From an uncultured bacterium (lineage in GTDB: Bacteria > Hydrothermota > UBA3072 > B12-G15): DNA of 64,000 nt. Where the stretch lies: the NCBI GenBank assembly GCA_965612735.1, contig CBFDSV010000003.1:6113-70112 (forward strand), written 5' to 3'. The position numbers were made by a program, and so were the translations under genes. Positions 1,448 to 56,115 of this stretch are shown here, one piece after another (position 1 is the first letter of the stretch; each line of letters begins with the position of its first letter). The notes under the pieces were generated by a model. That model did no database searches, had not been told where the DNA came from, and was given only the letters and a program-made list of their open reading frames with translations.

Positions 1448-3619
1448 GTGATATTCTTAATCATTGCCAGTTTGATTTCAGGAAGGGTATTTGATAGTAA
1501 AGGAGAGCCAATCCCTGGAGCGAATGTTTTTATCCAGGGGACAGAACGTGGTGCTGCAACAGACCAGGATGGTTGGTTTGTGATAAAGGATGTTTCACCT
1601 GGTGTTTACACGGTTGTGGTCAGTTTTATAGGTTACAGAAGAAAGGTTATAACAGATGTGGTGGTAACAGGAAAGAGGCCAGCAGTTCTTGAGGTTCACC
1701 TTGAAGAGGAGGCATTGAACCTTGGAGGGGCTACAATAATAGATGACTACTTTGTGAGGGAGACAGATAATCCTGCAGGAAGTTTTGTTCTTTCCTACGA
1801 AGAGATAAGGAGAACAACAGGTGCAACAGAGGATATATCAAGGATAACCCATCTGTTCCCGGGTGTAACTGCTCCATCAGATGACAGGAATGACCTTGTT
1901 GTCAGGGGAGGGTCTCCACTGGAGAATGGATTTTATGTGGATGGAATAAGGATACCAAACCCAAACCATTTTTCATCACCTGGAAGTGGAGGGGGTCCCA
2001 TAGGTTTTCTCCAGACATACTTTGTTAAGGAACTGGATGTTCTTACAGGTGGATTCCCTGCAAAATTCGGGGATGCCCTTTCTTCAGTAATTGATATAAA
2101 ATGGAGGAATGGAATTTCAGGTGCCAGAATTTACACCTTTGACCTCTCTATGGCAGGGGCGGGAGTGATACTTGACGGCACAATCGGTGATGCTGGATAT
2201 ATGTTTTCTGGAAGAAGGAGTTATCTTTTCCTCCTGGAGAAGATAGGTGTTTTTGACCTTGAGGGTGTTCCTGAGTACTGGGATATTCAGGGTAAACTAA
2301 CCCTGCCATTCTCCAATGGAAGGATTGACCTTGTAGGGATTGATTCAGACAGCTGGATAAACATAACAGGTTTTGGTTCAGGGGAGGGTACCTTTGATAT
2401 ATGGAATAGGTCTTATCAATATGCAGGTGGAGTGTCTTGCAGATGGGGGATTGGAAATGGTGTAATCTCTATTTATCTTTACAGAACACGGAATAATTAT
2501 CATGTTGATACAGAAGTAAGGGACACCCTTGTTTACTTTAACAGGTCTTATGAGGTTAGAAATACAATGCATGCAGAATGGGAGAACAGTTTTGATAAGG
2601 TTAAACTTACTGTGGGATTTGAGCCATCAATACTCAATTTCAGGCACAGGGTATATGTCAGGAATGAAGTGGACATAGATAGTGATACCACAACCTGGTC
2701 GGGTTCATTATTTCTTCAGTCAAACATAAAAAAGGGCAGGTGGGCATTGAATACAGGGATCAGGTTTGACTACCTTGATATTACAGAGAAGTACTCCATA
2801 TCACCAAGGTGCTCCTTCTCATGGGAGATGAACCCTGTAACATACCTGAACCTTTCAGCAGGGCTTTACAGCCAGCATCCTCAGCCTGTATGGCTCACAT
2901 CAAATATAGGGGGTGAGAAACTTGAGGACATCAAGTGTATCCAGTTTGTTGGAGGGATTGAACATTTAATAAAAGAGGATGTGAAGTTAAAGATAGAGGC
3001 TTACACAAAACACTACAGGAACTATCCTGTTGACACTGTTGACTCAACAAGGATTCTTGCAAATGAGGGAGCATCATATGAGGGATTTATAAACTTTCAT
3101 CCCCTTTCCTCTCAGGGGAAGGGCTCTGCCCATGGTATGGACCTGGTTATCCAGAAGAAATTCACACATGGAAACCATTTTATTCTCTCGTACTCATACA
3201 TAAAAACAGGGTTTATCCCCCTTGATGGGAAAACATATCCATCTGTTTATGAAGTGCCACATACCCTTGATTTTGAAGCAGGTTTCACACCTCTCAAGAA
3301 TTTTGAGATTGGCATAAGGTTCGGATTTGGATATGGAAGAAAATACTTCCCGATTGATTCGCTTGCCTCTGCTACACAGGGGTATACTGTACGTGATTAC
3401 TCCCGTATGGAGACCTATCCACCATACCACAGGCTTGATATTAGAATTGAGAGAAGGGAGTTTAAAAAACACTATTCAGTTGTATGGTATTTTGAGATAG
3501 ACAATGTGTACGGGAGGAAGAATATAAGGGACTATTACTGGGATGATACTGATAAAACGATAAAAACAGCGTACCAGTGGGGCTTCATGCCCGTGGGTGG
3601 ATGCAAGATAGAGTTTTAG
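1448..3619 (+). CDS. TonB-dependent receptor-like outer-membrane protein (CarboxypepD_reg-like N-domain, plug, beta-barrel)
   Basis: GTG start after GGAGG. N-terminus GRVFDSKGEPIPGANVFIQGTERGAATDQDGWFVI matches the CarbopepD_reg fold of SusC/RagA-type receptors. The ...GSPLENGFYVDGIRI stretch is plug-like, and the terminal residue is F as in OM beta-barrels. Confidence 0.6.
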   Translation: MIFLIIASLISGRVFDSKGEPIPGANVFIQGTERGAATDQDGWFVIKDVSPGVYTVVVSFIGYRRKVITDVVVTGKRPAVLEVHLEEEALNLGGATIIDDYFVRETDNPAGSFVLSYEEIRRTTGATEDISRITHLFPGVTAPSDDRNDLVVRGGSPLENGFYVDGIRIPNPNHFSSPGSGGGPIGFLQTYFVKELDVLTGGFPAKFGDALSSVIDIKWRNGISGARIYTFDLSMAGAGVILDGTIGDAGYMFSGRRSYLFLLEKIGVFDLEGVPEYWDIQGKLTLPFSNGRIDLVGIDSDSWINITGFGSGEGTFDIWNRSYQYAGGVSCRWGIGNGVISIYLYRTRNNYHVDTEVRDTLVYFNRSYEVRNTMHAEWENSFDKVKLTVGFEPSILNFRHRVYVRNEVDIDSDTTTWSGSLFLQSNIKKGRWALNTGIRFDYLDITEKYSISPRCSFSWEMNPVTYLNLSAGLYSQHPQPVWLTSNIGGEKLEDIKCIQFVGGIEHLIKEDVKLKIEAYTKHYRNYPVDTVDSTRILANEGASYEGFINFHPLSSQGKGSAHGMDLVIQKKFTHGNHFILSYSYIKTGFIPLDGKTYPSVYEVPHTLDFEAGFTPLKNFEIGIRFGFGYGRKYFPIDSLASATQGYTVRDYSRMETYPPYHRLDIRIERREFKKHYSVVWYFEIDNVYGRKNIRDYYWDDTDKTIKTAYQWGFMPVGGCKIEF

Positions 3620-13236: not shown

Positions 13237-14082
13237 ATGAGAAACTTGTTTATTCTCCTGCTCCTTGCAGGATGTGTTTTACATAAAAGTCCCATTGAGA
13301 ATGTTGATACATCTCCACCAGAAAGGGTAGTGAAACTTGTCTTCATACACCACAGTTGTGGAAGAAACGGGCTTGAAACAGGTAACGGAGATCTTGGTGA
13401 TTCCCTCAATGCAAATAACTATTTTGTGAGTGAATGCTACTATGGGTGGGATGAACATCCTGATACTGCCCATTATTCTGTAATGGGAGACCATACTGAT
13501 ACAGAGGATTGGCCGTACTGGTTCAATGATGTTGTGATGCCCTCTGTATATAAGTCAAATTCACATCCATCCTACGATAACAAAATCCCTGACCCTGGTG
13601 GAGAGAATGAGATAATCATGTTCAAGTCCTGTTTCCCATGCAGTTATGTTGGTGAATCCATTGAGGATGAGAAGGCTATATATAATGCCCTTCTTGACTA
13701 TTTCAGGCAACATCCTGAAAAGATGTTTGTTCTTGTAACCCCACCACCAATGAGAACAATTGAGAATAGCCATCTAACAAGGGAACTCACAAACTGGCTC
13801 TGTGATTATGAGAATGGGTGGCTCAAGGACTATCCATTGAATAATGTTTTTGTTTTTGATTTTTATAATGTGCTTACAGACCCAAACAATCATCATCGTG
13901 TAGAGGATGGAGAGATTCAACATATTGTGAGCGACAACCCTGTTGACCTGGAACATCCCAATGAACTTTACTATTACAGTGGGAGTGATAATCACCCCAC
14001 ACCAGAAGGCAACAGGAAGTCCACAGAGGAGTTTGTCCCCCTTTTGAATGCATACTGCCATATGTGGAAACAGGAGGAATGA
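13237..14082 (+). CDS. Hypothetical lipoprotein
   Basis: Signal peptide with lipobox LLLLAGC. No domain recognised. Confidence 0.5.
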   Translation: MRNLFILLLLAGCVLHKSPIENVDTSPPERVVKLVFIHHSCGRNGLETGNGDLGDSLNANNYFVSECYYGWDEHPDTAHYSVMGDHTDTEDWPYWFNDVVMPSVYKSNSHPSYDNKIPDPGGENEIIMFKSCFPCSYVGESIEDEKAIYNALLDYFRQHPEKMFVLVTPPPMRTIENSHLTRELTNWLCDYENGWLKDYPLNNVFVFDFYNVLTDPNNHHRVEDGEIQHIVSDNPVDLEHPNELYYYSGSDNHPTPEGNRKSTEEFVPLLNAYCHMWKQEE

Positions 14083-15497
14083 GGCAGCGTTCTTTGATTG
14101 AAGAGTATTTAAAGCGGATAAGGAGGCTTGAAAGGGCCGTTAAAAGAATAAACCAGATTAAGACCCCCGAAGCAATCATTAAGAATGTTCTCAAGGAGTG
14201 TAATAACATCCTGAAATCTTCTTCCTGTGCTTTGGTACTTAAAAGGGAAAAAAATCTATGGGATGCATTCGTATATAAAAAGGGTAGAAAAATCCTGAAG
14301 AATGATACGATTGTGTCCATTGAAAAACCAGATATTGTTTCCCTTTTCCCTGGAAGGGGTTTATTTATCGGGGAGATTTCAATAAACATTGATGATAAAG
14401 ATACAGGATATTTTTATGGAGCGTTTGATAACAGGGAAACACTTGAACACGCAGAAAAGTTTATCTTCTCCATTATAGAAACCATTCTGATAAGTGCACT
14501 CTCCAGGATTGAACTGCTGAAGGAGGTTAACTTTGCCCACAGGCATTTGAAGATTGTCTATGATATGAGCCAGTCCATCATATCCACAACAGGATTTGAT
14601 AAACTGATAGATAAACTCTTTAAGGAGATTCAACAGCATTTTGGTTATGAGAATATGGTGCTCTTTGTAAGGGAGGATGATGAAACCATGATCCTGAGAT
14701 ATTCAACCCGTCCGCTCCTTGGGCATATTGGTCTGAAATTCAAGATTGGGAAGGACGGCATCGTTGGGCATGTGGCAAAAACAGGCAAACCCTATTATGC
14801 GCCAGATGTGTGGAAAGACCCTTACTATATTATTGGAAGATTTCCTGCTCGTTCAGAATTCACCATACCACTGGTTCTTAAAGGGAAAGTAATTGGTGTG
14901 CTTGATATAGAGAGCACAAAACCCAATGCATTCCCCTCTGAAACAAGAGAGATTCTCAGTGCACTTGCAGCAAATATTGCAGTTGCCATGGAGAGGGCAA
15001 GACTATATGAGGAGACAGAGAGGCTTTCAATAATGGACCCATTAACAGGGGTTTCCAATAGAAGATTGCTGGAAAAGATGCTCCAGAATGCAATAGACCG
15101 TTCAACACGATACAATCGGAAGTTTGCTGTTCTCTTTATTGATTTTGACAATTTTAAGCCCTTCAATGATAGATATGGGCATGCAGAGGGGGACAAGGTA
15201 CTAATTTCACATGCACAGGTGATCAGGGAGCACCTGAGAAAGAGTGATACAATAGGAAGGTACGGTGGGGATGAATTTATTGTTATACTTTATAATGCAT
15301 CAAGGAAGTATGCAGAAAAGGTGGCAAACCGCATATTGAACAGTATTGCAAAGAGCAGATACAGAGAAGTCACTGTGTCCATAGGGGTATCTGTTTATCC
15401 TGAGGACGGAGAAAATGTTGAAGACCTTATCAGGTCGGCTGATGCTGCTTGCTACAAGGCAAAGAAGTTCGGTGGTCAGAGGGTTGATTTCGCCTGA
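14079..15497 (+). CDS. GAF-domain diguanylate cyclase (GGDEF)
   Basis: C-terminus carries RYGGDEF and DPLTGVSNRR motifs, with a central GAF domain. AGGAGG RBS precedes the ATG at 14079, which overlaps the upstream stop. Confidence 0.8.
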   Translation: MRQRSLIEEYLKRIRRLERAVKRINQIKTPEAIIKNVLKECNNILKSSSCALVLKREKNLWDAFVYKKGRKILKNDTIVSIEKPDIVSLFPGRGLFIGEISINIDDKDTGYFYGAFDNRETLEHAEKFIFSIIETILISALSRIELLKEVNFAHRHLKIVYDMSQSIISTTGFDKLIDKLFKEIQQHFGYENMVLFVREDDETMILRYSTRPLLGHIGLKFKIGKDGIVGHVAKTGKPYYAPDVWKDPYYIIGRFPARSEFTIPLVLKGKVIGVLDIESTKPNAFPSETREILSALAANIAVAMERARLYEETERLSIMDPLTGVSNRRLLEKMLQNAIDRSTRYNRKFAVLFIDFDNFKPFNDRYGHAEGDKVLISHAQVIREHLRKSDTIGRYGGDEFIVILYNASRKYAEKVANRILNSIAKSRYREVTVSIGVSVYPEDGENVEDLIRSADAACYKAKKFGGQRVDFA

Positions 15498-15567
15498 TTG
15501 TTTCATTATAAGACACACTGTTTCAAGTTAAATCATCCAGTAAAATAAACCCCTTTGATTATCAAGG

Positions 15568-15596
15568 TCTTATAACTGGCACAGAATATGTATAAT
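15568..15596 (+). promoter_or_regulatory. Candidate sigma-70 promoter with a perfect -10 TATAAT (15591-15596) preceded by TG
   Basis: TATAAT lies 22 nt upstream of the AGGAGG RBS of the Gly-rich gene. The -35 is weak (TCTTAT). TGGCAC at 15577-15582 also resembles a sigma-54 -24 element. Confidence 0.4.
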
Positions 15597-15618
15597 GTCT
15601 GCAAAAAGGAGGTGTGTT

Positions 15619-15900
15619 ATGTTTGGATATGGATGGTATGGTCCTGGTTTTGGATTTGGTTGGGGTAGAGGCTGGGGTAGAGGTTGGGGTAGAGGTTGGG
15701 GTTTTGGAGCAAGGCTTGGTTATTGCCCCTGGACAGGTCTTCCACGGGGATGGAGGTGGGCCTATGGTGGATTTTATCCCTACTGGGGTGCATATAATCC
15801 CTATTTTTATACAAATCCATATGTAAATCCATATGGATACTGGGGGTATCCACCAGAGCCCTACAACCCACAGCAACCTGAAACTTCAGGGAATAAGTGA
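15619..15900 (+). CDS. Small Gly/Trp/Arg/Tyr-rich low-complexity protein with (GWGR)4 and NPY-type repeats
   Basis: AGGAGG RBS, then MFGYGWYGPGFGFGWGRGWGRGWGRGWGFG...YNPYFYTNPYVNPYGYWGYPPEPYNPQQPE. Minus-strand and alternate-frame ORFs over the same DNA are repeat artefacts. Confidence 0.55.
   Translation: MFGYGWYGPGFGFGWGRGWGRGWGRGWGFGARLGYCPWTGLPRGWRWAYGGFYPYWGAYNPYFYTNPYVNPYGYWGYPPEPYNPQQPETSGNK
15658..15705 (+). repeat. 4x tandem 12-bp coding repeat (GGT/C TGG GGT AGA), encoding GWGR
   Basis: Direct tandem copies visible in the sequence. Confidence 0.9.
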
Positions 15901-15909
15901 GGTGGAGAA

Positions 15910-16515
15910 ATGAAGATACTTGTTACATCCACAGGGCCCACCCTTGATTCCCCTGTGGATATGAGGTTTGGAAGGTGTGCCTACTTCATACTTGTTGACC
16001 CTGAAACAATGGAGTATGAGGCAATCAGTAATCCCTATGCACAGGCACCGGGTGGTGCAGGTATTCAGACTGCACAGATGGCACTCCAGACAGGTGCTTC
16101 TGCGATTATCACTGGTTCTGTTGGTCCAAATGCATCTGGTGTACTTGGAACAACAGGGATAAGGGTCTTTGAAAGCCCGAATGTAAGTGTTGAAGAGGCA
16201 GTGAGGATGTACAAGGAAAATAAATTACAACCTTTAACTGTGGGAGGTGGTTTTATGCCAGGAGGATTTGGAATGGGAGCAGGGTTTGGTGGTGGATACG
16301 GTAGGGGTGGTGGTTTTGGAAGAGGTTATGGTAGAGGCGGAGGTTATGGAGGTTATGGTGCCTATGGTGGCTTTGGTCCAGGATACAATCAATGGACACC
16401 ACCCCAGATGAACCCTGCTGAAGAACTTCAGATATTGAGAACTCAGGCGGAGATGCTTAAAAGGCAACTTGATGCAATAGAAAGAAGAATCAGGGAACTT
16501 GAAAATTCAGGCTGA
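15910..16515 (+). CDS. NifX/NifB-family (dinitrogenase FeMo-cofactor-binding fold, PF02579-like) protein with RGG/YGG low-complexity tail and C-terminal coiled coil
   Basis: MKILVTSTGPTLDSPVDMRFGRCAYFILVD...IITGSVGPNASGVLGTTGIRVF matches the fold. The tail reads GGGYGRGGGFGRGYGRGGGYGGYGAYGG, followed by LQILRTQAEMLKRQLDAIERRIRELE. Confidence 0.7.
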   Translation: MKILVTSTGPTLDSPVDMRFGRCAYFILVDPETMEYEAISNPYAQAPGGAGIQTAQMALQTGASAIITGSVGPNASGVLGTTGIRVFESPNVSVEEAVRMYKENKLQPLTVGGGFMPGGFGMGAGFGGGYGRGGGFGRGYGRGGGYGGYGAYGGFGPGYNQWTPPQMNPAEELQILRTQAEMLKRQLDAIERRIRELENSG

Positions 16516-16546
16516 TGATGTATGATTGTGAAAAAGGAGGTGAAGA

Positions 16547-16861
16547 ATGAGGATAGCAGTGAGTGCTACAGAGGCAGATTATAATGTTGCTGGTGTTGAC
16601 CCGAGATTCGGAAGGTGTTCATTTTTCATAATATACGATACAGAAACAGGTGAATGGAGTTCCTTCCCCAATCCAGCAAAGGATGCAGTGGGTGGTGCTG
16701 CGATAAAGGCTGTGGAATTTCTTAAAAGTAAGAATGTTGATGTTGTTGTTACAGGTAACCTTGGTCCCAATGCAACATCTTCTCTTACAGCAGCAGGGAT
16801 AAGGGCAATAACAGGAGTAACTGGAAAAGTGCTGAATGCGGTGAAGAGGGCGGGTGAATGA
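16547..16861 (+). CDS. NifX/NifB-family small protein
   Basis: MRIAVSATE...DPRFGRCSFFIIYDTETGEW...VVTGNLGPNA matches the fold. Confidence 0.7.
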   Translation: MRIAVSATEADYNVAGVDPRFGRCSFFIIYDTETGEWSSFPNPAKDAVGGAAIKAVEFLKSKNVDVVVTGNLGPNATSSLTAAGIRAITGVTGKVLNAVKRAGE

Positions 16862-17691
16862 AGGTAGCCATTGGAAGTGGAAAGGGGGGGACGGGAAAGA
16901 CGCTGCTTTCAACCTCCCTTGCCCTTTCACTTGAATATGTGAGATACCTTGACCTTGATGTAGAGGAGCCCAATGGTCATATTTTCATAAAACCAGACAT
17001 CAGGGAAAAAATACCATTCTCAATCCCTGTACCAGAAATAGACTTCAACCGCTGTACATATTGTGGTGAGTGTGCAAAGGCATGCGAGTTCGGGGCAATA
17101 TTTGTAGGGACAAACACGGTGAATGTCTTTGAAAAACTCTGCCATGGGTGTGCCTCATGTAAACTTGCATGCCCTGAAAATGCAATAAGTGAAAGGCCAT
17201 ATGTTGTTGGTGAAATATCCATTGGAAGGCGTGACAAGATTGAATACATAATGGGATACCTGAAGTTGACAGAGGCATTATCAACCCCACTTATCAGATA
17301 CATAAAAAAAGAGTATGGAATGGTCTCAGGTGACATTATTATGGACGCTCCACCAGGGACTTCATGTCCATTTGTTCAGTCTATTTCTGACACTGATTTT
17401 GTTATTCTGATCACTGAACCCACCCCCTTTGGGCTCTCAGACCTTGAGATATCTGTTGAAATTGTCAGGGACATGAAATTGAAAGCGGGAATTGTGATAA
17501 ACAGGGCAGACCTTGGTTCAGAAGAAGTGAAGGAGAAGATAAAGGGGCTCGGGCTTCCTGTACTTCTTGAAATTCCATTCAGTAAGGATATTGCAGTGGG
17601 ATATTCAAAGGGTATTCCGCTTGTTGATGTACTGCCAGAATACAGGGAGAAGATGAAAAAACTGTGGGAGAGAATAAGGGAGATGGTATGA
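16858..17691 (+). CDS. MinD/ParA-family P-loop ATPase with inserted 2x[4Fe-4S] ferredoxin domain
   Basis: Deviant Walker A GSGKGGTGKT. Ferredoxin-type motifs CTYCGECAKAC and CHGCASCKLACP. Start overlaps the upstream stop. Confidence 0.75.
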   Translation: MKVAIGSGKGGTGKTLLSTSLALSLEYVRYLDLDVEEPNGHIFIKPDIREKIPFSIPVPEIDFNRCTYCGECAKACEFGAIFVGTNTVNVFEKLCHGCASCKLACPENAISERPYVVGEISIGRRDKIEYIMGYLKLTEALSTPLIRYIKKEYGMVSGDIIMDAPPGTSCPFVQSISDTDFVILITEPTPFGLSDLEISVEIVRDMKLKAGIVINRADLGSEEVKEKIKGLGLPVLLEIPFSKDIAVGYSKGIPLVDVLPEYREKMKKLWERIREMV

Positions 17692-18578
17692 TAAGGGAAG
17701 TTGCCATTGTCAGTGGAAAGGGTGGAACAGGAAAGTCAACAATTACGCTTGGACTTGCTTCTTTACTGAAAGACAAAGCAGTATTTGTTGATGCAGATGT
17801 TGATGCCCCTGATATGTACATTGTTATGGAGCCAGAACTTCTTAAAAAAGAGGATTTTGAAGGACCAAGATTCCCTGTTTATATACCTGATAAGTGTACA
17901 GGATGTGGATTGTGTGAGCAAAATTGCAGGTTTGATGCCATCAAAATAGTGGATATGAAACCTATTTTCAATGAATTTAAGTGCGATGCCTGTGGTGTAT
18001 GCTGGAGGGTCTGTCCATTTGATGCTATTGAGGTGAGGAGGGATATTTCAGGTGAAATATATATTTCCCGTTCAAGATTTGGCCCATTCGTCCATGCAAG
18101 ACTGTTCCCTGGAAGAGAGAATTCTGGAAAACTTGTAAGCAGGTTGAGGGTTGTGGCAAAGGCCGTGGCTGACGATGCAAAGAAAGATCTTATAATACTT
18201 GATGGTCCTCCTGGTGTTGGATGCCCTGTGATTTCAACCATCACAGGGGTGTCACTCACTGTGGGTATTGTGGAACCTACCCTTTCAGGGATACACGACA
18301 TTATCAGGGTTTATGAACTATCAACATTCTTTAATATTCCCTTTACAATTGTGATAAACAAGAGTAATATAAACCCTGATATGGTTCAACGGATAAAGGA
18401 GTTTGCCAGTGAAAATGGCATAAAGATACTTGGAGAGATACCATTTTCAAGGAGGATTGTAGAGGCACTTCTTCAGAGGAAAACCATAATTGAGGGTGAT
18501 GTTGAGGATGGAATTAAGGAGGAATTAAAAAGGATATGGAATGGAATCCAGTCAATGCTCTCGCTGACGGGATTATAA
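17688..18578 (+). CDS. MinD/ParA-family P-loop ATPase with ferredoxin insert (paralog)
   Basis: VSGKGGTGKST, CTGCGLCEQNC and CDACGVCWRVCP motifs. ATG at 17688 overlaps the upstream TGA. Confidence 0.75.
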   Translation: MIREVAIVSGKGGTGKSTITLGLASLLKDKAVFVDADVDAPDMYIVMEPELLKKEDFEGPRFPVYIPDKCTGCGLCEQNCRFDAIKIVDMKPIFNEFKCDACGVCWRVCPFDAIEVRRDISGEIYISRSRFGPFVHARLFPGRENSGKLVSRLRVVAKAVADDAKKDLIILDGPPGVGCPVISTITGVSLTVGIVEPTLSGIHDIIRVYELSTFFNIPFTIVINKSNINPDMVQRIKEFASENGIKILGEIPFSRRIVEALLQRKTIIEGDVEDGIKEELKRIWNGIQSMLSLTGL

Positions 18579-20170
18579 TTACAGATGAACATCTAAAGAT
18601 TATCAATTTTAATCAGGCTATACTAAGAATTACAGGTTTTTCTCCTGATGAATTGATGGGGAAAAATATAAAAGAGATACTACCTTACTTTAAGAAGGTT
18701 GAGAACAAGGTTATTCCTGCTGTTGAGACAGAGATGAAGACCTGGGAAGGAATGACAATCAAGGTTCTTGTTTCTGTGAATCCTGTTAAATCACCAGAAG
18801 GGAAAACAAATCAACACCTTTTTGTTATCAGGAATATTTTTGAGTACCTTTTTCTCCTGAAGCAACTCGTACAGGAAAGAAATTTCAAGGAGGCAATCCT
18901 TGAATCCATACTTGATGGTGTATTCACTATTGATAGTCAATTCAGGATAACTTCTTTTAACAAAGCAGCGGAAAATATCACAGGGTATAAAAAAGAAGAG
19001 GTTCTTGGCAAAAACTGCAGTGAGGTGATGAAGTCACCGGATGCAGATGCCTGCCCACTGAAAAAAACACTTGAGACAGGAGAGAATGTTTCAAATTATG
19101 AGATGGAAATTATAACAAAGAATGGGAAAAGAATCCCTGTATCTGTGAATACTGCAATTCTCTACGATGAAAAGGGTGAGGTGATAGGAGGTGTGGAAAC
19201 ATTCAGGGATATGTCCGAGATTGTGAGACTGAGGAACGAAGTAAGGCACAGATTTTCCTTCGGAAACATTATAGGGAAGTCTGATTGTATGCAGATCATC
19301 TATGACAAACTTGAGGTTATTTCTGTAACGGACTCAAATGTACTTATTGAAGGGGAAACAGGAACTGGTAAGGATTTGATTGCAAGAACAATCCACTACA
19401 ATTCAATGAGAAAGGATAAGCCCTTTGTGAAGATAAACTGTGCTGCAATCCCTGAGAATCTCCTTGAGAGTGAACTCTTTGGTTATAAGAAGGGCGCATT
19501 TACAGGTGCTGTGATGGATAAGATGGGGAAGTTTGAGGCTGCAGATGGTGGAACCATCTTCCTTGATGAGATAGGGGATATGCCACTCTCACTCCAGGCA
19601 AAAATATTGAGGGTGATAGAGGAGAGGGAGTTTGAGAGGCTTGGAGAGGTTGAGACAAGGAAGGTGGATGTGAGGGTGATTGCTGCTACAAACAGACCCC
19701 TTAAAGAACTTGTGGAACAGGGGAAATTCCGAATGGACCTTTATTACAGGTTGAATGTTGTGAGGATAAGGCTTCCTGCTTTGAGGGAAAGGGCAGAGGA
19801 TATACCACTTCTCCTTGACCACTTTATTGAGGTTTTTAATAAAAAATTCAACAAAAAGGTCAAAGGTGTTGAACAGAGGGTTATGGATTTTCTCCTTGAC
19901 TACTCCTGGCCAGGAAATGTAAGGGAACTTGAGAATGTGATTGAACATGCCATGATACATGCCAGGGGAGATTTGATAAGGTTTGATAATCTGCCTGATT
20001 ACCTGTTTGAAGAAGGGGAATCTGGTGCAGTCAGTCTGGTGGATGTTGAAAGGGAGCACATACTCAGGGTATTGAAAAGTGTAAACAATAACAAGACCAG
20101 GGCAAGCAAGATACTTGGTATATCTCGCTCCACACTCTGGAGAAAACTCAAAGAACTGAACATAGAATAA
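18536..20170 (+). CDS. Sigma-54-dependent transcriptional activator (2x PAS, AAA+ sigma-54 interaction domain, Fis-type HTH)
   Basis: GETGTGKDLIAR, ESELFGYKKGAFTGA and a C-terminal HTH (TRASKILGISRSTLWRKLK). Confidence 0.85.
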   Translation: MEWNPVNALADGIIITDEHLKIINFNQAILRITGFSPDELMGKNIKEILPYFKKVENKVIPAVETEMKTWEGMTIKVLVSVNPVKSPEGKTNQHLFVIRNIFEYLFLLKQLVQERNFKEAILESILDGVFTIDSQFRITSFNKAAENITGYKKEEVLGKNCSEVMKSPDADACPLKKTLETGENVSNYEMEIITKNGKRIPVSVNTAILYDEKGEVIGGVETFRDMSEIVRLRNEVRHRFSFGNIIGKSDCMQIIYDKLEVISVTDSNVLIEGETGTGKDLIARTIHYNSMRKDKPFVKINCAAIPENLLESELFGYKKGAFTGAVMDKMGKFEAADGGTIFLDEIGDMPLSLQAKILRVIEEREFERLGEVETRKVDVRVIAATNRPLKELVEQGKFRMDLYYRLNVVRIRLPALRERAEDIPLLLDHFIEVFNKKFNKKVKGVEQRVMDFLLDYSWPGNVRELENVIEHAMIHARGDLIRFDNLPDYLFEEGESGAVSLVDVEREHILRVLKSVNNNKTRASKILGISRSTLWRKLKELNIE

Positions 20171-20172
20171 GC

Positions 20173-21012
20173 GTGTCAGAAAGAAGGGGCATCAGAAGCG
20201 ACATCATACTTCTCACTGCCTCAATCATATGGGGGTTTGCCTTTGCCTTTCAGAAAAAAGGAATGGATTTTATTGGTCCATTTCTCTTCACAGGTTTACG
20301 ATTCCTTCTTGGAAGTCTGGTTGTTTTACCTTTTTTATTCAGAAAAGGAGAACAGGGTGGTTTTAAAGAGTCAATAATACTGGGTTTTCTACTCTTTGCA
20401 GGTGTCTCTCTCCAGCAGGTGGGCATTGTTTATACAACCGCCGGGAAGGCAGGGTTTATAACAGGGCTCTATGTTGTTTTTGTCCCAGTAGCAGGGTATT
20501 TAATGGGTATAAGAACCAGAAGGTTTACCTGGATTGGTGCCGGGCTTGCAATTGTAGGTCTATACCTCTTGAGTATCAGGGGAAGATTTTATCCTGAAAA
20601 GGGTGACCTTCTTGTACTCCTTGGTGCAGTTTTCTGGACCTTTCACGTAATCTACATATCAAAGTTTACAAAAGGGAAAGACCCCTTGAAACTCGCATTC
20701 GGTCAATTCCTTGTTTGTGGTATTCTTGGAATGGGTGTGGCATTTGTCCTTGAGGATATCTCAATGAGTGGAGTGTTTAACACAGGCATCCCTTTACTCT
20801 ATGCAGGTGTTTTGTCATCAGGTATTGCATACACATTACAGGTTGTTGGACAGAAAAGGGCACATCCATCCCATGCTGCTGTGATTTTGAGCCTTGAATC
20901 CCTGTTTGCTGCTATTGGTGGCTTTTTACTCCTCCACGAAGTCATGACCCCCAGAGAAATTCTGGGTGCAGCACTGATGCTCACAGGTATGATGATCTCC
21001 CATTTTTCATAA
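20173..21012 (+). CDS. DMT/EamA-family transporter
   Basis: Ten-TM profile with a duplicated EamA-like pattern. GTG start. Confidence 0.65.
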   Translation: MSERRGIRSDIILLTASIIWGFAFAFQKKGMDFIGPFLFTGLRFLLGSLVVLPFLFRKGEQGGFKESIILGFLLFAGVSLQQVGIVYTTAGKAGFITGLYVVFVPVAGYLMGIRTRRFTWIGAGLAIVGLYLLSIRGRFYPEKGDLLVLLGAVFWTFHVIYISKFTKGKDPLKLAFGQFLVCGILGMGVAFVLEDISMSGVFNTGIPLLYAGVLSSGIAYTLQVVGQKRAHPSHAAVILSLESLFAAIGGFLLLHEVMTPREILGAALMLTGMMISHFS

Positions 21013-21054
21013 CCTTATATTTCTCCTTGCATATGATTGGATTGAATGTAAAAT

Positions 21055-23244
21055 ATGGTTGGTATGGGTAAACTCCTTATTGTGTCCAACAGGCTTCCCC
21101 TTAGTGTTGAGAAGAAAAGGGGAAAGTTATACTTCCATCCGAGTATAGGAGGTCTTGCCACAGGGCTTTCATCCTTCTACAGGGAAAAGAAGGCACTATG
21201 GATTGGATGGCCTGGTGTCTCAACAGATAAGATTTCTGTTGAAGAAAAGGTGGAGATTGAAGAGAGGCTTTTCACTGATAATTGCCTCCCTGTATTTCTT
21301 ACATCCAAGGAGGTGGAAAGGTACTATGCAGGATTTTCAAACAGGACCATCTGGCCATTGTTCCATTATTTTTATCAGTATGCCCAGTTCAGGAAGGAGT
21401 ATTTTGAGGTATACAGATTGGTGAATGAAAAATTCTGTGATGTTATCACAGGGGTTGCAAAACCTGATGATACAATCTGGATTCACGATTACCAGTTGAT
21501 GCTTCTTCCTGGTCTTCTCAGAAAGAAGTTACCTTCAGCAACCATAGGGTTTTTCCTCCACATCCCATTCCCCTCCTTTGAGGTTTTCAGACTCCTTCCT
21601 TGGAGAAGGGAGATACTTGAGGGGTTGCTGGGTGCTGACCTTGTGGGATTCCACACATTTGGATATGCAAGGCACTTTCTATCCAGTGTTTTAAGGATTA
21701 TGGGATACGACAATACCCTTGGAAGAATAAATCTGAAAAACAGGGTGGTTCTTGTTGATGTTTTCCCCATGGGAATTGATTTTGACAGATTCAACAAAGT
21801 CGGTGAGAATAAAGAGGTACAATCAGAGGTTGAAAAGATAAAAAGCAATCTGAAGGCGGAAAAAATCATTATCTCAATAGATAGGCTGGACTATACAAAG
21901 GGAATTATAGAGCGACTTGAGGCATTTGACGATTTTCTGAAAAGGTTCAAGGAATACAGGGAAAGGGTCTCCATGATTTTGATAACTGCACCATCAAGGT
22001 CAGGGCTTGAGCATTACCAGTATCTTGAAAAGAGGGTGAATGAACTTGTTGGTAGCATCAATGGAAGGCATGGAAGGGTTGGATGGATGCCTGTGTGGTA
22101 TATACACAGGTCAATCCCGTTTGAATCAATTGTTGCACTCTACCTTGTTGCAGATGTTGCACTTGTGACACCATTAAGGGATGGTATGAACCTTATTGCC
22201 AAGGAATTTGTTGCATCAAAAAAGGATAAAAGGGGTGTGCTCGTCCTGAGTGAGATGGCAGGTGCAGCTATGGAACTTGGGGAGTCCATAATCGTGAATC
22301 CTAATAGCAGAGAGGAGATGGTCTCAGCAATCAAGCAGGCACTTGAGATGTCACTGGATGAACAGGTTGAAAGAATGGCAAGGATGCAGGAGAGATTGAA
22401 GAGATACAACATTATCCACTGGGCAGAGGACTTTACAAAGAAACTTGAAGAGGCAAGGAACATAAACACAGAACTCCGCTCGCGCAGATTAACAAAGGAT
22501 ATTGAAAAGAAACTTATTGAAGATTTCACTTCAGGGGAAAAGAGGCTTCTTCTCCTTGATTATGATGGAACACTTGTTCCCTTCAATGTGAGGCCTGAGA
22601 GGGCAGGTCCTGACAGGGAACTCCTCTCAATTATTGATTCACTGACATCAATCAATGGGGTATGCCTTGTGATTTCAAGTGGAAGGGACAGACAGACCCT
22701 TGATAGATGGTTTGGCAGGTTCAACATTGGTATAATTGCTGAACATGGGGTATGGATAAAAAAATCAAGGGATACCTGGAAGGAGTTTATACCCTTGAGC
22801 CAGGATTGGAAAAAGGAAATAATACCTGTACTTGAGATGTTCACAGATAGAACACCTGGCTCATTCATTGAAGAGAAGGAGTTCTCCCTTGTATGGCACT
22901 ACAGGGGTGCTGAACCTGGACTTGCTGATGTGAGGGCGAATGAACTCAAGGAGGAACTTATAACACTTATATCAAATCTTGAACTTGAGGTTCTGGAGGG
23001 AAATAAGGTTATAGAAATAAAGAGTGCAGGTATTGACAAGGGAAAGGCTTCCCTTCTATGGGTGGAGGAGGGATGGGATTTTATACTTGCAGCAGGGGAT
23101 GATAATACTGACGAGGATATATTTGCTGTTCTGCCAGAAACAGCTTATACAATCAAGGTGGGGCATGGACTTTCAAAGGCGAGGTTCAGGGTGAATTCCT
23201 ATCTGGAGATAAGGGGGATTTTGAGGAAAATCAAGGAGGTGTAA
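21055..23244 (+). CDS. otsA: Bifunctional trehalose-6-phosphate synthase / trehalose-6-phosphate phosphatase (OtsA-OtsB fusion)
   Basis: N-terminal GT20 motifs (LLIVSNRLP, IWIHDYQLMLLP). C-terminal HAD motif LLLDYDGTLVPF. Confidence 0.85.
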   Translation: MVGMGKLLIVSNRLPLSVEKKRGKLYFHPSIGGLATGLSSFYREKKALWIGWPGVSTDKISVEEKVEIEERLFTDNCLPVFLTSKEVERYYAGFSNRTIWPLFHYFYQYAQFRKEYFEVYRLVNEKFCDVITGVAKPDDTIWIHDYQLMLLPGLLRKKLPSATIGFFLHIPFPSFEVFRLLPWRREILEGLLGADLVGFHTFGYARHFLSSVLRIMGYDNTLGRINLKNRVVLVDVFPMGIDFDRFNKVGENKEVQSEVEKIKSNLKAEKIIISIDRLDYTKGIIERLEAFDDFLKRFKEYRERVSMILITAPSRSGLEHYQYLEKRVNELVGSINGRHGRVGWMPVWYIHRSIPFESIVALYLVADVALVTPLRDGMNLIAKEFVASKKDKRGVLVLSEMAGAAMELGESIIVNPNSREEMVSAIKQALEMSLDEQVERMARMQERLKRYNIIHWAEDFTKKLEEARNINTELRSRRLTKDIEKKLIEDFTSGEKRLLLLDYDGTLVPFNVRPERAGPDRELLSIIDSLTSINGVCLVISSGRDRQTLDRWFGRFNIGIIAEHGVWIKKSRDTWKEFIPLSQDWKKEIIPVLEMFTDRTPGSFIEEKEFSLVWHYRGAEPGLADVRANELKEELITLISNLELEVLEGNKVIEIKSAGIDKGKASLLWVEEGWDFILAAGDDNTDEDIFAVLPETAYTIKVGHGLSKARFRVNSYLEIRGILRKIKEV

Positions 23245-25741: not shown

Positions 25742-26954
25742 ATGTTCCTTCTGTGGTAAATCATACAGAGAAACAGGAAGGATGTTCCATGGTATTGGGG
25801 ATGCATATATATGCCCTGATTGTGTGGAGTTGCTCCATGAGATTCTGGTGATTGAACCTGGTGCAAGGAAAAAGGGGAAGATAAAACTTCAAACTCCACA
25901 GGAGATAAAGAAAGAACTTGATAAATACATTATAGGTCAGGAGCATGCAAAGAAGGTTCTCTCTGTTGCAGTTTACAACCACTATAAAAGGATACTTAAC
26001 AAGACTAAAAGCGATGTGGATATAGAGAAGAGCAACATACTTTTGATTGGCCCAACAGGGGTTGGGAAAACATACCTTGTCCAGACACTTTCAAAGATAC
26101 TGAATGTTCCACTTGCAATAGGTGATGCAACCGCCCTTACAGAGGCAGGTTATGTGGGTGAGGATGTTGAGAATCTCCTTGTGAGGCTGCTGCAGGCATG
26201 CAACTATGATCTGGGTATGGCAGAGATGGGAATTGTTTATATAGACGAGATTGACAAGATTTCAAGAAAATCAGAGAATCCTTCCATTACAAGGGATGTT
26301 TCAGGTGAAGGTGTTCAGCAGGCACTCCTTAAAATTGTTGAAGGTGATAAGGTGAATGTACCTCCAAAGGGTGGAAGGAAACACCCTGAACAGGACTTCA
26401 TACAGGTTAACACAAAGAATATCCTCTTCATTGGTGGAGGAACATTTGATGGTATAGAGAGTGTTGTGAAACACAGGCTTGGAGAGACTGCTGTGGGTTT
26501 CAATGCACCAATTAAAGCACAGGAAGAAATGAGGAAGTATGAACTTTTGAAGTTGGTTGAACCTGAAGATCTGGTAAAGTATGGAATGATACCAGAACTT
26601 GTTGGAAGATTTCCTGTTATCACCCCACTCCATGACCTGACTGAGGACGACCTTGTAAAAATACTCACAGAACCAAAGAATGCACTTGTGAAGCAGTATC
26701 AGGAACTTATAAAAATGGATGGGGTGAAACTCTATTTTGAGGATGATGCACTCTATGCAATAGCAAAGAAGGCAATGAAATTGAAAACAGGTGCAAGGGG
26801 TTTGAGGGGTGCAATGGAGGATATTATGCTTGATATTATGTACAGGATACCCGGACTTAAAGGGGTTAAGGAATGTATTATAACAAAGTCTGTTGTTGAA
26901 AACAATGAAGAACCCATTTTTGTTTACAGAAAAACAAAAAGAAAGGCAGAATGA
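25725..26954 (+). CDS. clpX: ATP-dependent Clp protease ATP-binding subunit ClpX
   Basis: Zn-finger CSFCGK...CPDCV. Walker A GPTGVGKT. Walker [10 protein letters not shown]. Confidence 0.95.
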
Positions 26955-29212
26955 ACAGGTTTCCAGTCTTATATATTGAGGAAGAGGTTCTTTTCCCATT
27001 AAGTTCCATTCCCTATATTGTGAGCAATGGGCATGAACTTATCACCATTGAAAGAGCAATGGATAAGTTTAAGGGTAAGGTGGTTGTCCTTCCATCAGGT
27101 ATTTCAAATCTGGAAAGGAAATTCTGTACAATAGCAGAGGTTGTTTCACTGAATGAGACTGCAAGGGGCATAAGGATTGTTCTCCAGGGAGAGGATAGGT
27201 GCAGGATTAAATCATTAAGGGATACTGGTGGAATACCTATGGTAGATGTTGAGATTGTTTTTGAGGAAATAGAGAATTACAGGAAGGCACACGCACTCAT
27301 AAGGGCAATAAAGAGGCTTCTTGTGGAGTTTACAGACCTATCAGATGGGGAAAGTGCGCCAGGTATTGAGTCACTTATTCAGGAGAATGACCCTGTAATC
27401 TTTTTGTACAGAACCCTTTCAGCAATTCCACTGAACAACAATGTTAAATGGCATATATATCAACTGGAAGGTATTGAGACAAAACTGGATAAAATACTTG
27501 AGGCAATATCAACAGACCTTGAGGTTGCAAGGCTTGAGAAGGAGATACTTGACAAGGTTAAGGATAGACTGTCAAAGAATCAGAAGCAGTACCTGCTCCA
27601 TGAACAGTTGAAGGTAATACAGAAGGAACTGGGAAGGGAGGAGGATGAGGATATCCAGAAGTTGAAGGATACGATAGAAAAGTCTAATATGCCAGAGGAG
27701 GCAAGGGAGAAGGCGCTCTCTGAACTGGAAAGGCTCAAAAAAATCCCACCCATGTCCCCTGAGAGTGTTGTTATCAGGAATTACCTTGACTGGCTCCTTA
27801 AACTACCATGGAACAATGGAAAACAGGAAGAGATGGATATAAAGAAGGTTCAGGAGGTGCTTGAGAAGAACCACTACGGTCTGGAGAAGGTGAAGGAGAC
27901 CATCATTGAGTACCTGAGTGTTTTGAAACTCACAGGTTCTTCAAAAGGTCACATCCTTTGTTTTGTGGGACCACCAGGTGTTGGTAAGACATCCCTTGGA
28001 AGGTCTATTGCAGAGGCACTTGGGAGGAAGTTTGTCAGGGCATCACTTGGGGGTGTGAAGGATGAGGCTGAGATAAGGGGGCATAGAAGGACCTATGTTG
28101 GGTCTATGCCTGGAAAGATTATACAGGAGATTGCAAGGGCAGGTGTGAACAACCCTGTCTTCCTTCTTGATGAGGTGGATAAGATAGGTGTTGATTACAG
28201 GGGGGACCCTGCAAGTGCACTCCTTGAGGTGCTTGACCCAGAGGTGAACCAATCATTTATGGACCACTACATTGAGATTGGTTATGACCTCTCCCATGTT
28301 CTCTTCATCACCACTGCCAATGTTACTTATTCAATCCCGCCCCCACTCCTTGATAGAATGGAGATAATCAACCTTCCAGGCTACCTTGAGTTTGAAAAAA
28401 TTGAGATTGCAAAGAGGCATCTCATCCCAAAAATAATTGAGGATACAGGTTTAAGGCAGAGGGATTTCAGGGTTTCTGATGGGGTTATAAAGAAGATAAT
28501 AAAGGAGTACACACAGGAGGCAGGTGTCAGGAACCTTGAAAGGTCCCTGAGAAAGATAGCAAGGAAGATAGCAAGAGAGAAGGCATTTGGTTCCAGAAGA
28601 ATACCCAGAATAACCACTAAAAATATAGAGGATTTTCTGGGTGTGCCAAAATTCAAGGGTTTCAAGAAGAAACAGGGAGTTGGTGTTGCCACAGGGCTTG
28701 CATGGACACCTGTGGGAGGAGAAGTTATACAGGTGGAAACAAGGGTGATGGATGGTGAGGGTAATCTTATACTCACGGGACAGATGGGCGATGTGATGAA
28801 GGAGTCTGCAATGGCTGCATTGAGTGTTATAAGGAGCAATTACAAAAGATATGGACTGAACAGGGATTTTTATAGAAAACTGGATGTTCATGTTCATATA
28901 CCTGAGGGTGCTGTTCCAAAGGATGGTCCATCAGCAGGTGTAACCATTTTCTCATCAATACTCAGTGCACTCACAAAGAAACAGACAAGAGGGGATGTTG
29001 CAATGACAGGTGAAATCACATTGAGTGGCAGGGTCCTCGGGGTTGGTGGGCTCACTGCAAAACTAATGGCTGCAAGGAGTGCAGGAATAAAAAAGGTCAT
29101 TCTTCCTATTGATAATGAAAGGGATATAAAAGAGGTTCCAGAGGCTGTAAAGGCAGGGCTCAATCTGATATTTGTAAAAAACACAGAGGATGTAGTGGAG
29201 AATGCCTTCTAA
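26951..29212 (+). CDS. lon: ATP-dependent protease Lon
   Basis: GPPGVGKTS Walker A. C-terminal PKDGPSAG(V) catalytic Ser motif. Confidence 0.95.
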
Positions 29213-53682: not shown

Positions 53683-56115
53683 ATGTTTGAAAGAAAGGAA
53701 TACACCCCGCAACTGAATAAGATTATCATAATTGCAGAGAGAGAGGCAAGGGCAAGGAATATGGATATTATAACCTCAGAATTGCTCCTGCTTGCCATAA
53801 TCCAGGAGGGTCAAAACCTTGCACTCACAATACTTAAAGAAGCAGAGGTGGATATTCCCCAGTTGAGGAAGGTTCTTGAAGGATACATCATGAGGGATGA
53901 ACTTGTGATGGCAGGCTCATCCCTTGATCTTTCAATGGATGCAAGGGTTAGCCTTGAGAATGCAAGAAAAGAGGCAATTGGATTTGGGGACAACCAGATA
54001 GGTGCTGAACACCTTCTCCTTGGTATCATTGCAAATCAGGATACACGTGCCTCTGAGATACTCCTTGAGGAGTACGACCTTGACCTGATGAGGGCAAGGA
54101 ATATTCTTCTCAGCCTTGGAACAAAGGGAAGGAAGGTTAAGAAGGTAAGGCCTTCTGCATTGAATTTCTACACAAGAGACCTCACCCAGCTGGCAGAAGA
54201 GGGTAAACTTGACCCTATAATTGGAAGGGAAAAGGAGATTGAGAGGGTTATACAGATACTCTCAAGGAGGAAGAAGAATAATCCAGTTCTCATTGGAGAA
54301 CCGGGGGTTGGTAAGACTGCCATTGTTGAAGGGCTTGCCCAGAAGATAGCAAGAAAGGATGTTCCTGACCCGCTGCTGAACAAAAGGGTGTTGAGCCTTG
54401 ACCTTGCAGCAGTGATTGCAGGAACAAAATACAGGGGTCAGTTTGAGGAGAGGCTGAAGGCTATCCTCTCAGAGATACAGGAATCAAAAAACATAATAAT
54501 GTTCATAGACGAACTCCATACAATTGTTGGGGCTGGTGCTGCTGAAGGGGCAATTGATGCCTCAAACATACTGAAACCAGCACTTGCAAGGGGTGAGATT
54601 CAATGTATTGGTGCAACAACCATGGAGGAGTACAGAAAATACATTGAAAAGGACGGGGCACTTGAGAGAAGATTCCAGATAATCATTGTCGACCCACCAT
54701 CTGTTGAAGAAACCATTGACATACTGAAGGGCCTGAAACCTGCATATGAGGCACACCACAGGGTGAGATATACAGATGCTGCAATAGAGGCTGCTGCAAA
54801 ACTTTCAGATAGATACATAAATGACAGATTCCTGCCGGATAAGGCAATTGATGTGATTGATGAAGCAGGTGCAAGGGTTAAACTCCAGAATTCAAGGATT
54901 CCTGAAGAGATACTTGAACTGGAGGATGAACTCAAGAAGATTAAAGAGGAACTTGAAGCAGCAAGGACAAGGGGTGATTTTGAAAAGGCAATAACATTGA
55001 GGGATAGGAAAGAAAAGCTGGATGAGGAACTAACAGAACACCTTGAGGAGTGGAAATCAAGCAGGACAGGTATTGTTGGTGAGGTGACAGAGGAGGATGT
55101 CAGGCATGTGATATCCATGTGGACAGGTATTCCCCTTGTGAAACTTGAGGAGAAGGAAACAGAAAAACTGCTGAGGATGGAGGAAGAATTAAAGAAGAGG
55201 ATTGTGGGTCAGGACGAGGCAATAGAGGTTATCTCCAGGGCAATAAGAAGGGGCAGGACAGGGCTTAAGGACCCGAGAAAGCCCATTGGTTCCTTCCTGT
55301 TCCTCGGACCAACAGGTGTTGGTAAGACAGAACTTGCAAGGCAACTTGCACTATTCCTATTCAACAGTGAGAACTCACTTATAAGGCTTGATATGAGTGA
55401 ATACATGGAGAAGTTCAATGTTTCAAAACTCATAGGTGCACCCCCTGGTTATGTTGGGTATGATGAAGGTGGACAACTCACAGAAAAAGTGAGGAGAAGG
55501 CCTTACAGCGTTGTGCTCCTTGATGAGATTGAGAAGGCGCATCCTGAGGTTTTCAACCTGCTTCTCCAGATACTTGATGATGGAAGCCTCACTGATGCAT
55601 ATGGAAGGAGGGTGAGTTTCAAGAACTGTGTTATTATTATGACTTCAAATATTGGAACACGGGAACTCATGAAGGGAACAGCAATGGGATTCAGGAAAGA
55701 GGACAGGGAGATTACATACCAGCAGATGAAGGAGTATCTCCTTGAAGAGGTGAAAAGGGTGTTCAATCCTGAATTTGTAAACAGGCTTGATGAGGTTGTT
55801 GTATTCAGGCAACTCGGGAAAGAGACAATGAAGAGGATAGTGGAGATTCTGTTTGAGGATATAAGGGAGAGGGTGAAGGAGAAGGGATTTGAGATTTCAC
55901 TCACAGATGAGGCAAAGGAATTTATTATTGAGAAGGGGTTTGACCCTGAATATGGAGCAAGACCACTGCACAGGACATTCCAGAGATACCTTGAGGACCC
56001 ACTTGCAGAAGAGATCCTCAAGGGCAAGTGGAAGTCTGGTATGAAGATTGTTGTTTCAAGAGAGGATGATAAATTGATATTCCTCTCCTCTGAGCCTATC
56101 TCCGTTGAGGTATGA
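53683..56115 (+). CDS. clpC: ATP-dependent Clp protease ATP-binding subunit ClpC
   Basis: Two Clp_N repeats, two AAA+ modules ([10 protein letters not shown]; [12 protein letters not shown]) and a UVR-like linker. RBS GGGAGG precedes the ATG at 53683. Confidence 0.9.

Follow-up and report, generated by a model that had tools for sequence, protein, structure and literature searches.

The stretch analyzed here (the window) comprises 64,000 nucleotides (nt) of contig CBFDSV010000003.1 from an uncultured bacterium, and the system in question is a cluster of six tightly packed plus-strand genes at 15619-20170, delineated from a list of open reading frames (ORFs) and Pfam matches (Table 1). A preliminary description of this DNA had named two NifX-family proteins, two MinD-ferredoxin ATPases and a sigma-54 activator with two PAS domains, and Pfam and sequence motifs confirmed each of these assignments. 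It had also counted five same-strand genes with tight junctions; the junctions are indeed tight, but the genes number six, the first ORF having been missed together with the DUF5320 part of the cluster. Successive genes are separated by gaps of 9 and 31 nt and then joined by overlaps of 4, 4 and 43 nt, and no convincing intergenic or internal terminator was found within the six-gene run. For gene 5, ATG 17688 creates an ATGA overlap and is the start called in relatives; it was preferred over GTG 17664 and is most likely where translation begins. All minus-strand ORFs of the region are contained within plus-strand genes, and an Rfam search of 14000-21500 matched no family. By Pfam, the cluster is flanked by a GAF-GGDEF cyclase gene upstream and an EamA transporter gene downstream. 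All genes tested are under purifying selection (dN/dS 0.04-0.15), and a partial enhancer-binding protein (EBP) in the database, 100% identical to the gene 6 product, is labelled candidate division WOR-3. From its sequence, we read the cluster as one operon in a bacterium belonging to candidate division WOR-3.

Table 1. Genes of the operon and sites upstream of it, in window coordinates (aa, amino acids).
Feature	Position	Strand	Description
Upstream activator site 1 (GTTTCATTATAAGAC)	15500..15514	+	Proposed target of the activator that the operon encodes
Upstream activator site 2 (GTTTCAAGTTAAATC)	15520..15534	+	20 nt downstream of site 1
Palindrome TTGATTATCAA	15555..15572	+	Overlaps an exact IHF core consensus (TATCAAGGTCTTA, 15560-15572)
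Sigma-54-type core TGGCAC-AGAAT-ATGTA	15577..15592	+	-24 GG present; -12 is GT, not GC
TATAAT hexamer	15591..15596	+	Possible sigma-70 -10, or A/T-rich -12 to -7 of a sigma-54 promoter
Gene 1	15619-15900	+	93 aa; Gly/Tyr/Pro/Trp-rich; DUF5320-related, C-terminal coiled coil absent
Gene 2	15910-16515	+	ORP-type NifX-fold domain, Gly-rich linker and DUF5320 coiled coil; PF02579 + PF17253
Gene 3	16547-16861	+	Second NifX-fold protein, 104 aa; PF02579
Gene 4	16858-17691	+	MinD/ParA-class ATPase with inserted 2x[4Fe-4S] ferredoxin domain (Orp3/Orp4 type)
Gene 5	17688-18578	+	MinD-ferredoxin ATPase paralogous to gene 4; 296 aa counted from ATG 17688
Gene 6	18536-20170	+	OrpR-family sigma-54 activator: PAS1, OrpR-type PAS2, AAA+ with GAFTGA, HTH_8

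By homology and gene content, this module is the Orp (orange protein complex) cluster of Desulfovibrio together with an OrpR-family activator, a system of an already known kind that has been under study in Desulfovibrio vulgaris since 2011. The D. vulgaris cluster encodes two MinD-like proteins, Orp3 and Orp4, both with a pair of [4Fe-4S] motifs, and the "orange protein" itself, Orp8, whose fold is of the NifX type (PMC6345978). In Desulfovibrio, the Orp proteins are reported to associate physically and ORP to bind a Mo-Cu-S cluster (PMC6345978), and the roles proposed for the complex are cell division and the handling of Fe-S or Mo-Cu-S clusters. The regulator OrpR (DVU2106), a PAS-AAA+-HTH protein, works together with sigma-54 and IHF, and this control of the D. 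vulgaris orp genes has been shown experimentally (PMC3897727, PMC8359166). The earlier suggestion of a regulated Fe-S or metallocofactor system thus agrees with the published Orp complex (PMC6345978), but the system is not an unknown one, since it corresponds to the Orp cluster and an OrpR-type regulator. We consider it quite probable that the window carries a WOR-3 Orp operon with its own OrpR-family activator and with autoactivation of the sigma-54/IHF type.

Our reference was the D. vulgaris Hildenborough cluster DVU2103-DVU2109 and related Desulfovibrio orp loci, among them the locus of Desulfovibrio sp. X2 (L170), which was reached from the D. gigas ORP sequence (PDB 2wfb) and whose ORP is 74% identical to that protein. 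The window operon shares with the Desulfovibrio loci a NifX-fold protein of ORP type, a pair of paralogous MinD-type ATPases that each have two [4Fe-4S] motifs and an amphipathic helix at the C-terminus (PMC6345978), a small Gly-rich protein ahead of ORP (seen in the X2 locus) and a dedicated PAS-AAA+-HTH activator (PMC8359166). The sequence in front of it also contains a candidate promoter of the -24/-12 type, putative activator sites and an IHF-like site, elements that resemble those of the D. vulgaris orp promoters (PMC3897727). The differences lie in layout and in detail. The window genes form one operon in which the activator gene comes last and overlaps gene 5, whereas D. vulgaris has two divergent operons flanking orpR; the window ORP, unlike its Desulfovibrio counterparts, continues into a DUF5320 coiled coil; GTTTCA-type sequences take the place of the GGGCGYRTTTTGCGCCC of D. 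vulgaris at the upstream sites; the -12 element is GT, unlike that of Desulfovibrio orp; and the host belongs to candidate division WOR-3. Also in contrast to D. vulgaris, the MrpORP (Orp9) gene is absent from the window, in which no further P-loop or NifX fusion was found. MrpORP is likewise absent from the 18-kb X2 locus, and therefore it is probably not part of the Orp core.

In Pfam, the products of genes 4 and 5 each combine a CbiA/ParA P-loop with two Fer4 stretches. Each contains GKGGTGK[TS], two CxxCxxCxxxC motifs, an invariant Cys in PPGTSCP and a C-terminal amphipathic helix; in gene 4 the P-loop motif, GKGGTGKT, is at residue 8 and the cysteine motifs are at residues 66 and 95. Gene 4 is 39% identical to the first MinD-ferredoxin ATPase of Desulfovibrio sp. 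X2 and gene 5 is 41% identical to the second, with 29-32% identity when each is compared with the opposite X2 protein. The two window ATPases are themselves 32% identical, and Orp3 and Orp4 are reported to be 41% similar (PMC6345978). The window proteins are thus 1:1 orthologues of the X2 pair, encoded in the same order. On this evidence the duplication that produced the paralogues is old, since it would predate the split of the two phyla, and because both paralogues have been kept as orthologous partners the products of genes 4 and 5 are likely to form a heterodimer. The family is large, with more than 8000 database relatives at E <= 1e-10.

The predicted structure of the gene 4 product (pLDDT 91.7) has archaeal MinD, the Mrp/MinD-type HypB, FleN, ApbC and NifH as its nearest solved folds (Foldseek E 1e-11 to 1e-8, TM-score about 0.6), and no solved structure was found that covers the ATPase with its ferredoxin insert. 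The window ATPases share a deviant Walker A motif and the overall fold with MinD/ParA-class SIMIBI ATPases (archaeal MinD, HypB, ApbC/Nbp35, NifH), and the C-terminal amphipathic helix with MinD (PMC6345978). They differ from that class by a 2x[4Fe-4S] ferredoxin insert of about 70 residues after the first strand-helix unit. The invariant Cys of DAPPGTSCP stands 7 residues past the Walker B/switch II Asp (D163-C170 in one ATPase, with a matching C179 in the other), a spacing that we take to be that of the cluster-ligand Cys132 of NifH, and this residue could be a ligand of an inter-subunit metal site.

The two NifX-fold proteins also have their closest solved relatives among orange proteins. 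Gene 2 matches Nitro_FeMo-Co (1.5e-21) and DUF5320 (2.8e-11) in Pfam. Its ORP-type domain, residues 1-107, resembles the solved structures of D. gigas ORP (2wfb, 9e-18) and MTH1175 (6e-21) and is 44% identical to the ORP of Desulfovibrio sp. X2, and residues 114-197 match DUF5320 (PF17253) with 44.9 bits against a gathering cut-off of 27. Between them, linker residues 109-165 are 49% Gly with RGG, YG and FG repeats, a composition atypical for bacterial proteins. Gene 3 matches Nitro_FeMo-Co (PF02579) at 1.1e-22 and 2wfb at 6e-10, and is 37% identical to the NifX-fold domain of gene 2.

Gene 1, whose ATG follows AGGAGG by 6 nt, encodes a protein composed of 25% Gly, 15% Tyr, 13% Pro and 11% Trp that matched no Pfam family, DUF5320 included. 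Homologues sharing MFG[FY]G...GARLGYCPWTGLPRGWRW, in which GARLGYCPWTGLPRGWRW is a conserved motif, open the operon in L001-4, L082, L086-89, L102, L143 and L169 (L numbers designate related loci). In L102 and L143 the N-terminal region of the homologue runs on into a coiled coil (LKAQA..L.EEIRRIEERI.QLEE), and the full-length L102 protein scores 30.1 bits against DUF5320, above the cut-off of 27. Through this homologue, gene 1 can be placed as a probable DUF5320 relative that lacks the coil. At 15658-15700, a 12-nt unit (GGTTGGGGTAGA) is repeated three times head-to-tail and encodes the (GWGR)3 stretch of gene 1. The Gly/Arg/aromatic-rich DUF5320 parts, i.e. gene 1 and the linker and coiled coil of gene 2, might provide a higher-order scaffold for the Orp proteins. 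No paper on DUF5320 was found in the literature searched.

The names of several of these matches invite a different interpretation, namely a nitrogenase-type cofactor maturation set in which NifX/NafY-like carriers and NifH-like ATPases would be controlled by a NifA-like activator. We regard this as most improbable. PF02579 is indeed named Dinitrogenase iron-molybdenum cofactor, but among solved structures the small proteins come closest to ORP and MTH1175. Gene 5 is weakly Fer4_NifH-like and NifH is among the structural neighbours of the ATPase model, yet nifHDK, nifEN and nifB were found neither in the window nor in the related loci. The nifA model is likewise among the NCBIfam matches, but its score (TIGR01817, 358 bits) falls short of the cut-off of 528.85, and gene 6 has PAS domains and no GAF domain, whereas NifA has GAF. 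Moreover, the module corresponds 1:1 to the Desulfovibrio orp loci and is present in many lineages, including Asgard archaea and Bathyarchaeia. A defence-system reading was also rejected, as PADLOC showed only AAA+ similarity to RtcR-type models.

To see how the genes are distributed, we surveyed 80 GTDB loci on contigs taken from one genome per species; many of these contigs are short, and the counts are therefore lower bounds. The tandem ATPase pair is found in 73 of the 80 loci, 70 have a NifX-fold gene no more than 4 kb away, and DUF5320 occurs in 26. A sigma-54 EBP is encoded within 5 kb in 16 loci, 15 times with a PAS domain. Bacterial loci come from Desulfobacterota, Chloroflexota, Planctomycetota, Omnitrophota and others, and archaeal ones from Bathyarchaeia, Thor- and Heimdallarchaeota (Asgard) and methanogens; the literature terms the Orp complex anaerobe-specific. 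The six-gene unit as a whole is retained in relatives at 96% identity (L005, L086) and at 72% identity (L001-L004, L089, L166), and in the 72% group its neighbours are entirely different. Because the unit is constant despite changed flanks, the activator travels with the structural genes, and the proposal in the preliminary description that module and activator belong together functionally held up in this gene-neighbourhood analysis. The Orp unit of ORP, two ATPases and OrpR-type activator extends to WOR-3 as a compact single operon, and the window adds no new kind of system. Two other WOR-3 loci, L168 and L169, have larger orp-like clusters that add an ArsP_2 permease, a Lactamase_B protein, a methyltransferase, a radical SAM protein and an Mrp-like ParA, and that lie near Fur-FeoAB genes, which hints at a link to metal uptake.

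Gene 6 shows the architecture of the OrpR family (PAS, AAA+, HTH_8) and its linkage to orp genes. In Pfam, it matches two PAS stretches, Sigma54_activat (5e-74), AAA_lid_14 and HTH_8. Over residues 120-540, its identity to the orp-adjacent EBP of Desulfovibrio sp. X2 is 48%, the figure that also describes PAS2 against the PAS of this EBP, and identity to the second EBP of the X2 locus is 38%. Gene 6 is also not decaying, as far as substitution rates tell: dN/dS against L086 is 0.087 overall, 0.086 in PAS2 and 0.038 in the AAA+ domain. Unlike OrpR, the gene 6 product has an extra N-terminal PAS domain, which contains no Cys, and its loop reads GAFTGA instead of the GAFTDA listed for DVU2106 (PMC4641369). 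The OrpR binding site GGGCGYRTTTTGCGCCC is absent upstream of the window operon, where conserved GTTTCA-type sites lie at the equivalent place, and the recognition helix of gene 6 differs from that of Desulfobacterota EBPs.

The most informative differences concern the cysteines of PAS2. OrpR holds a [4Fe-4S] cluster through a triad, C52/C61/C65, with C-x8-C-x3-C spacing (PMC8359166). EBPs adjoining orp-like genes in other phyla are about 445-495 aa long with one PAS domain, the unusual GAFTDA loop and the same spacing, the first Cys lying at residues 52-67. Among the listed gene 6 homologues, nearly all of P0140-P0240 have the triad, as do L001, L082 and X2. In PAS2 of the window activator the triad is incomplete, with C161-x11-C173 only. 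The corresponding sequence is GKNCSEVMKSPDADACPL in this protein and in close relatives of 83-100% identity. It lacks the middle Cys, equivalent to C61, and carries a one-residue deletion; what it keeps of OrpR is the first Cys, the Glu found two positions later and the last Cys. In a sister set of about 95% identity the sequence is ...ADARPL, and the last Cys is gone too. OrpR-like sensors with three, two and one Fe-S cysteines are thus represented by the relatives, the window and the ~95% identical strains, respectively. In D. vulgaris, a triple Cys-to-Ser OrpR loses redox sensing and is constitutively active (PMC8359166). By analogy with this mutant, the loss of Cys suggests that OrpR-type [4Fe-4S] redox sensing has probably been altered or lost in this lineage. 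A different variation is seen in eight homologues (P0147, P0156, P0158, P0161, P0162, P0173, P0174 and P0177), which carry C-x8-C-x3-C in both PAS domains; they are about 50% identical to gene 6, fall in the range of WOR-3-named matches and are candidate double Fe-S PAS sensors. One such double-triad EBP (L167) is not beside orp genes.

Two promoter-like elements had been pointed out ahead of the operon, a TGGCAC proposed as a sigma-54 -24 element with a poor -12 and a TATAAT proposed as a sigma-70 -10, and both lie where they had been placed. The window core deviates from the sigma-54 consensus TGGCAC-N5-TTGCW (GG-N10-GC) by having GT for GC, and no perfect consensus is present in the 64-kb window; the other best matches, at 28687 and 52265, lie inside genes and were taken as chance. 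What makes the TGGCAC credible is the comparative evidence, in particular a canonical site in L169 and upstream sites at fixed spacing. At the homologous position, the window and L086 read AACTGGCACAGAATATGTATA, L082 (a 52% relative) reads TTCTGGCACGGAGGTGGTATA with the core CTGGCACGGAGGTGGTATA, and L169, another WOR-3 genome, reads AACTGGCACGGATTTTGCATA, a perfect consensus (TGGCAC-N5-TTGCA) that sits between an OrpR-like gene and the gene 1 homologue. L002 and L088 read TGGAAT-AATAA-TTTTA; MAFFT misplaced these two promoters because of indels, and the register was taken from fixed-distance measurements.

The sequences upstream of the core are conserved in five lineages (window, L086, L082, L002 and L088). 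The GTTTCA of site 1 begins 77-78 nt before TGG in all of them, and the GTTTCA-like half-site of site 2 begins at -57 (-55 in L082). In L082, site 1 is a perfect palindrome, GTTTCA-TTG-TGAAAC, and in L169 GTTTCA-N4-TGAAAT and ATTTCA-N4-TGAAAC lie at a greater distance from the promoter. Between sites 1 and 2 and the promoter, TGrTTAT is invariant in the five lineages and ends 11-12 nt before TGG. Exact matches to WATCAANNNNTTR number 2 in 64 kb against 6.15 expected by chance, and one of the two is at the operon promoter; the orp promoters of D. vulgaris depend on IHF (PMC3897727). In L086, whose upstream GGDEF gene carries deletions and stop codons, similarity to the window begins again at position 15492, 8 nt before site 1. 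Canonical sigma-54 promoters also occur just past the EBP gene in ten loci with an OrpR-like gene upstream (120-210 nt past its stop), in the divergently arranged L008 and in the X2 locus. Together, these comparisons suggest that 15577-15592 descends from a sigma-54 promoter and probably still is one. A TTGAT-T-ATCAA sequence was rejected as an FNR box for its 1-nt spacer; such a box requires a spacer of 4 nt.

Alternatively, the operon could be transcribed from a sigma-70 promoter through the TATAAT, with the TGGCAC as a relic and the activator regulating genes elsewhere or only modulating this operon. TATAAT-like hexamers are present in the window, L002 (TATAAT) and L082 (TATAAA), but the closest relative, L086, has TATACA, in which the critical last T is lost and TGGCACAGAATATGTA is nevertheless unchanged. 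Relatives without an EBP in the locus, L102 and L143, do use a plain sigma-70 promoter, of a canonical TTGACA-17-TATATT type, before the gene 1 homologue; in the window, however, there is no -35 at 16-18 nt from the TATAAT, and a promoter scan lists no promoter-like site here. The claim of a sigma-70 -10 therefore stands as far as the hexamer itself is concerned and falters on L086 and on the missing -35, and for these two reasons we judge the sigma-70 reading weaker than the sigma-54 reading. In its favour are the loss of the -12 C in all five close lineages, including the TGGAAT-N5-TTTTA of the L002/L088 clade, and the activator-independent transcription needed by an activator gene that lies downstream in the same operon. 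Against it are TGG, the palindrome and two upstream sites at fixed spacing across lineages with only 50-70% protein identity, and an activator that is intact, has kept GAFTGA and is under purifying selection; in addition, no other tandem GTTTCA pair was seen upstream of a gene in the window. On balance, we consider a sigma-70 promoter of this kind unlikely.

Several points nevertheless weigh against an autoactivated sigma-54 Orp operon. Taken alone, the TGGCAC is at chance level, given that the window holds 46 matches to TGGCAC-N5-TTGC with no more than two mismatches and 44.9 would be expected. The near-invariant C of the -12 element is replaced, giving GT in the window as in L086 and L082 and TT in both L002 and L088; the -12 site is a major determinant of the sigma-54 closed complex (PMC5095919), so that dependence on sigma-54 in the window is an inference, and with T in place of C the strength of the promoter and the tightness of its control may differ. 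Neither an rpoN nor an ihf gene is present in the window. Where the activator gene closes the very operon that it activates, some basal transcription is required, and no source for it was confidently identified. As for the Orp assignment, the NCBIfam model for MrpORP (the Mrp/NBP35-Di-Nase fusion) gave only partial matches of 27-40 bits against a cut-off of 450, orthology was tested on Desulfovibrio sp. X2 and D. vulgaris was compared through published motif descriptions, and even for D. vulgaris the cellular role of Orp is at the stage of proposals (PMC8359166).

Returning to the sigma-54 reading, we propose that dimers of the activator would bind both GTTTCA-type sites, located roughly 100 and 80 bp ahead of the start point, and that the IHF-like site between these and the promoter would bend the DNA. 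The AAA+ ring could then act through its GAFTGA loop to open the sigma-54 promoter at 15577-15592, which would drive all six genes, including the activator's own, and thereby establish positive autoregulation. The gene products would be expected to assemble into an ATP-driven Fe-S complex in which a MinD-like heterodimer with ferredoxin inserts works with small ORP-fold cluster carriers, one of which has a Gly/Arg/aromatic linker and a coiled coil attached. If D. vulgaris is a guide, reducing conditions would favour production of the complex, which would serve metal-sulfur cluster handling, cell division or both; this view of its function here comes from Desulfovibrio only.

It is also conceivable, though rather doubtful, that the Orp circuit is being rewired in this lineage. 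The stepwise loss of Fe-S ligands in a PAS2 that remains under purifying selection and the replacement of the -12 C could both be signs of such a change. If this is true, the activator may be constitutive or may sense a new signal, for example through the added PAS1, and a weakened -12 "lock" would permit the basal expression that an auto-activated operon needs. The natural 3-2-1 Cys series of sensors and the -12 variant promoter could be used to test how an Fe-S PAS domain controls an AAA+ ring.

Some further observations concern other parts of the window. The GAF-GGDEF cyclase gene upstream of the operon is intact here but is a pseudogene with in-frame stops in L086, a strain 95-96% identical, where 3178-3569 aligns with window 14302-15492 and has two deletions of about 636 and 173 nt. 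Within the lon gene (26951-29212), at 28659-28701 on the plus strand, a near-perfect palindrome with GTTTCA-type half-sites, GTTTCAAGAAGAAAC, is followed after 14 nt by TGCCACAGGGCTTGC. The latter departs from the sigma-54 consensus at a single position, but this change destroys the GG, and the combination is probably due to chance.

Co-regulation of a NifX-like gene at 59832 with the operon had also been raised, and we found no sign of it. This divergent third NifX-fold gene (59832-60218, plus strand; PF02579, 2e-8) lies at the end of a run of glycogen genes, where it shares 4 nt with an alpha-amylase gene (57712-59835), itself preceded by a GH57 branching-enzyme gene (56112-57719), and neither a GTTTCA pair nor a -24/-12 element is present upstream of it. 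A NifX-fold gene is an odd partner for glycogen genes. Beyond it, a minus-strand ORF of 302 aa (60499-61407) with an IS200-like Y1 transposase domain (PF01797, 1.7e-9) adjoins a beta-propeller/lactonase-like gene (61404-62513).

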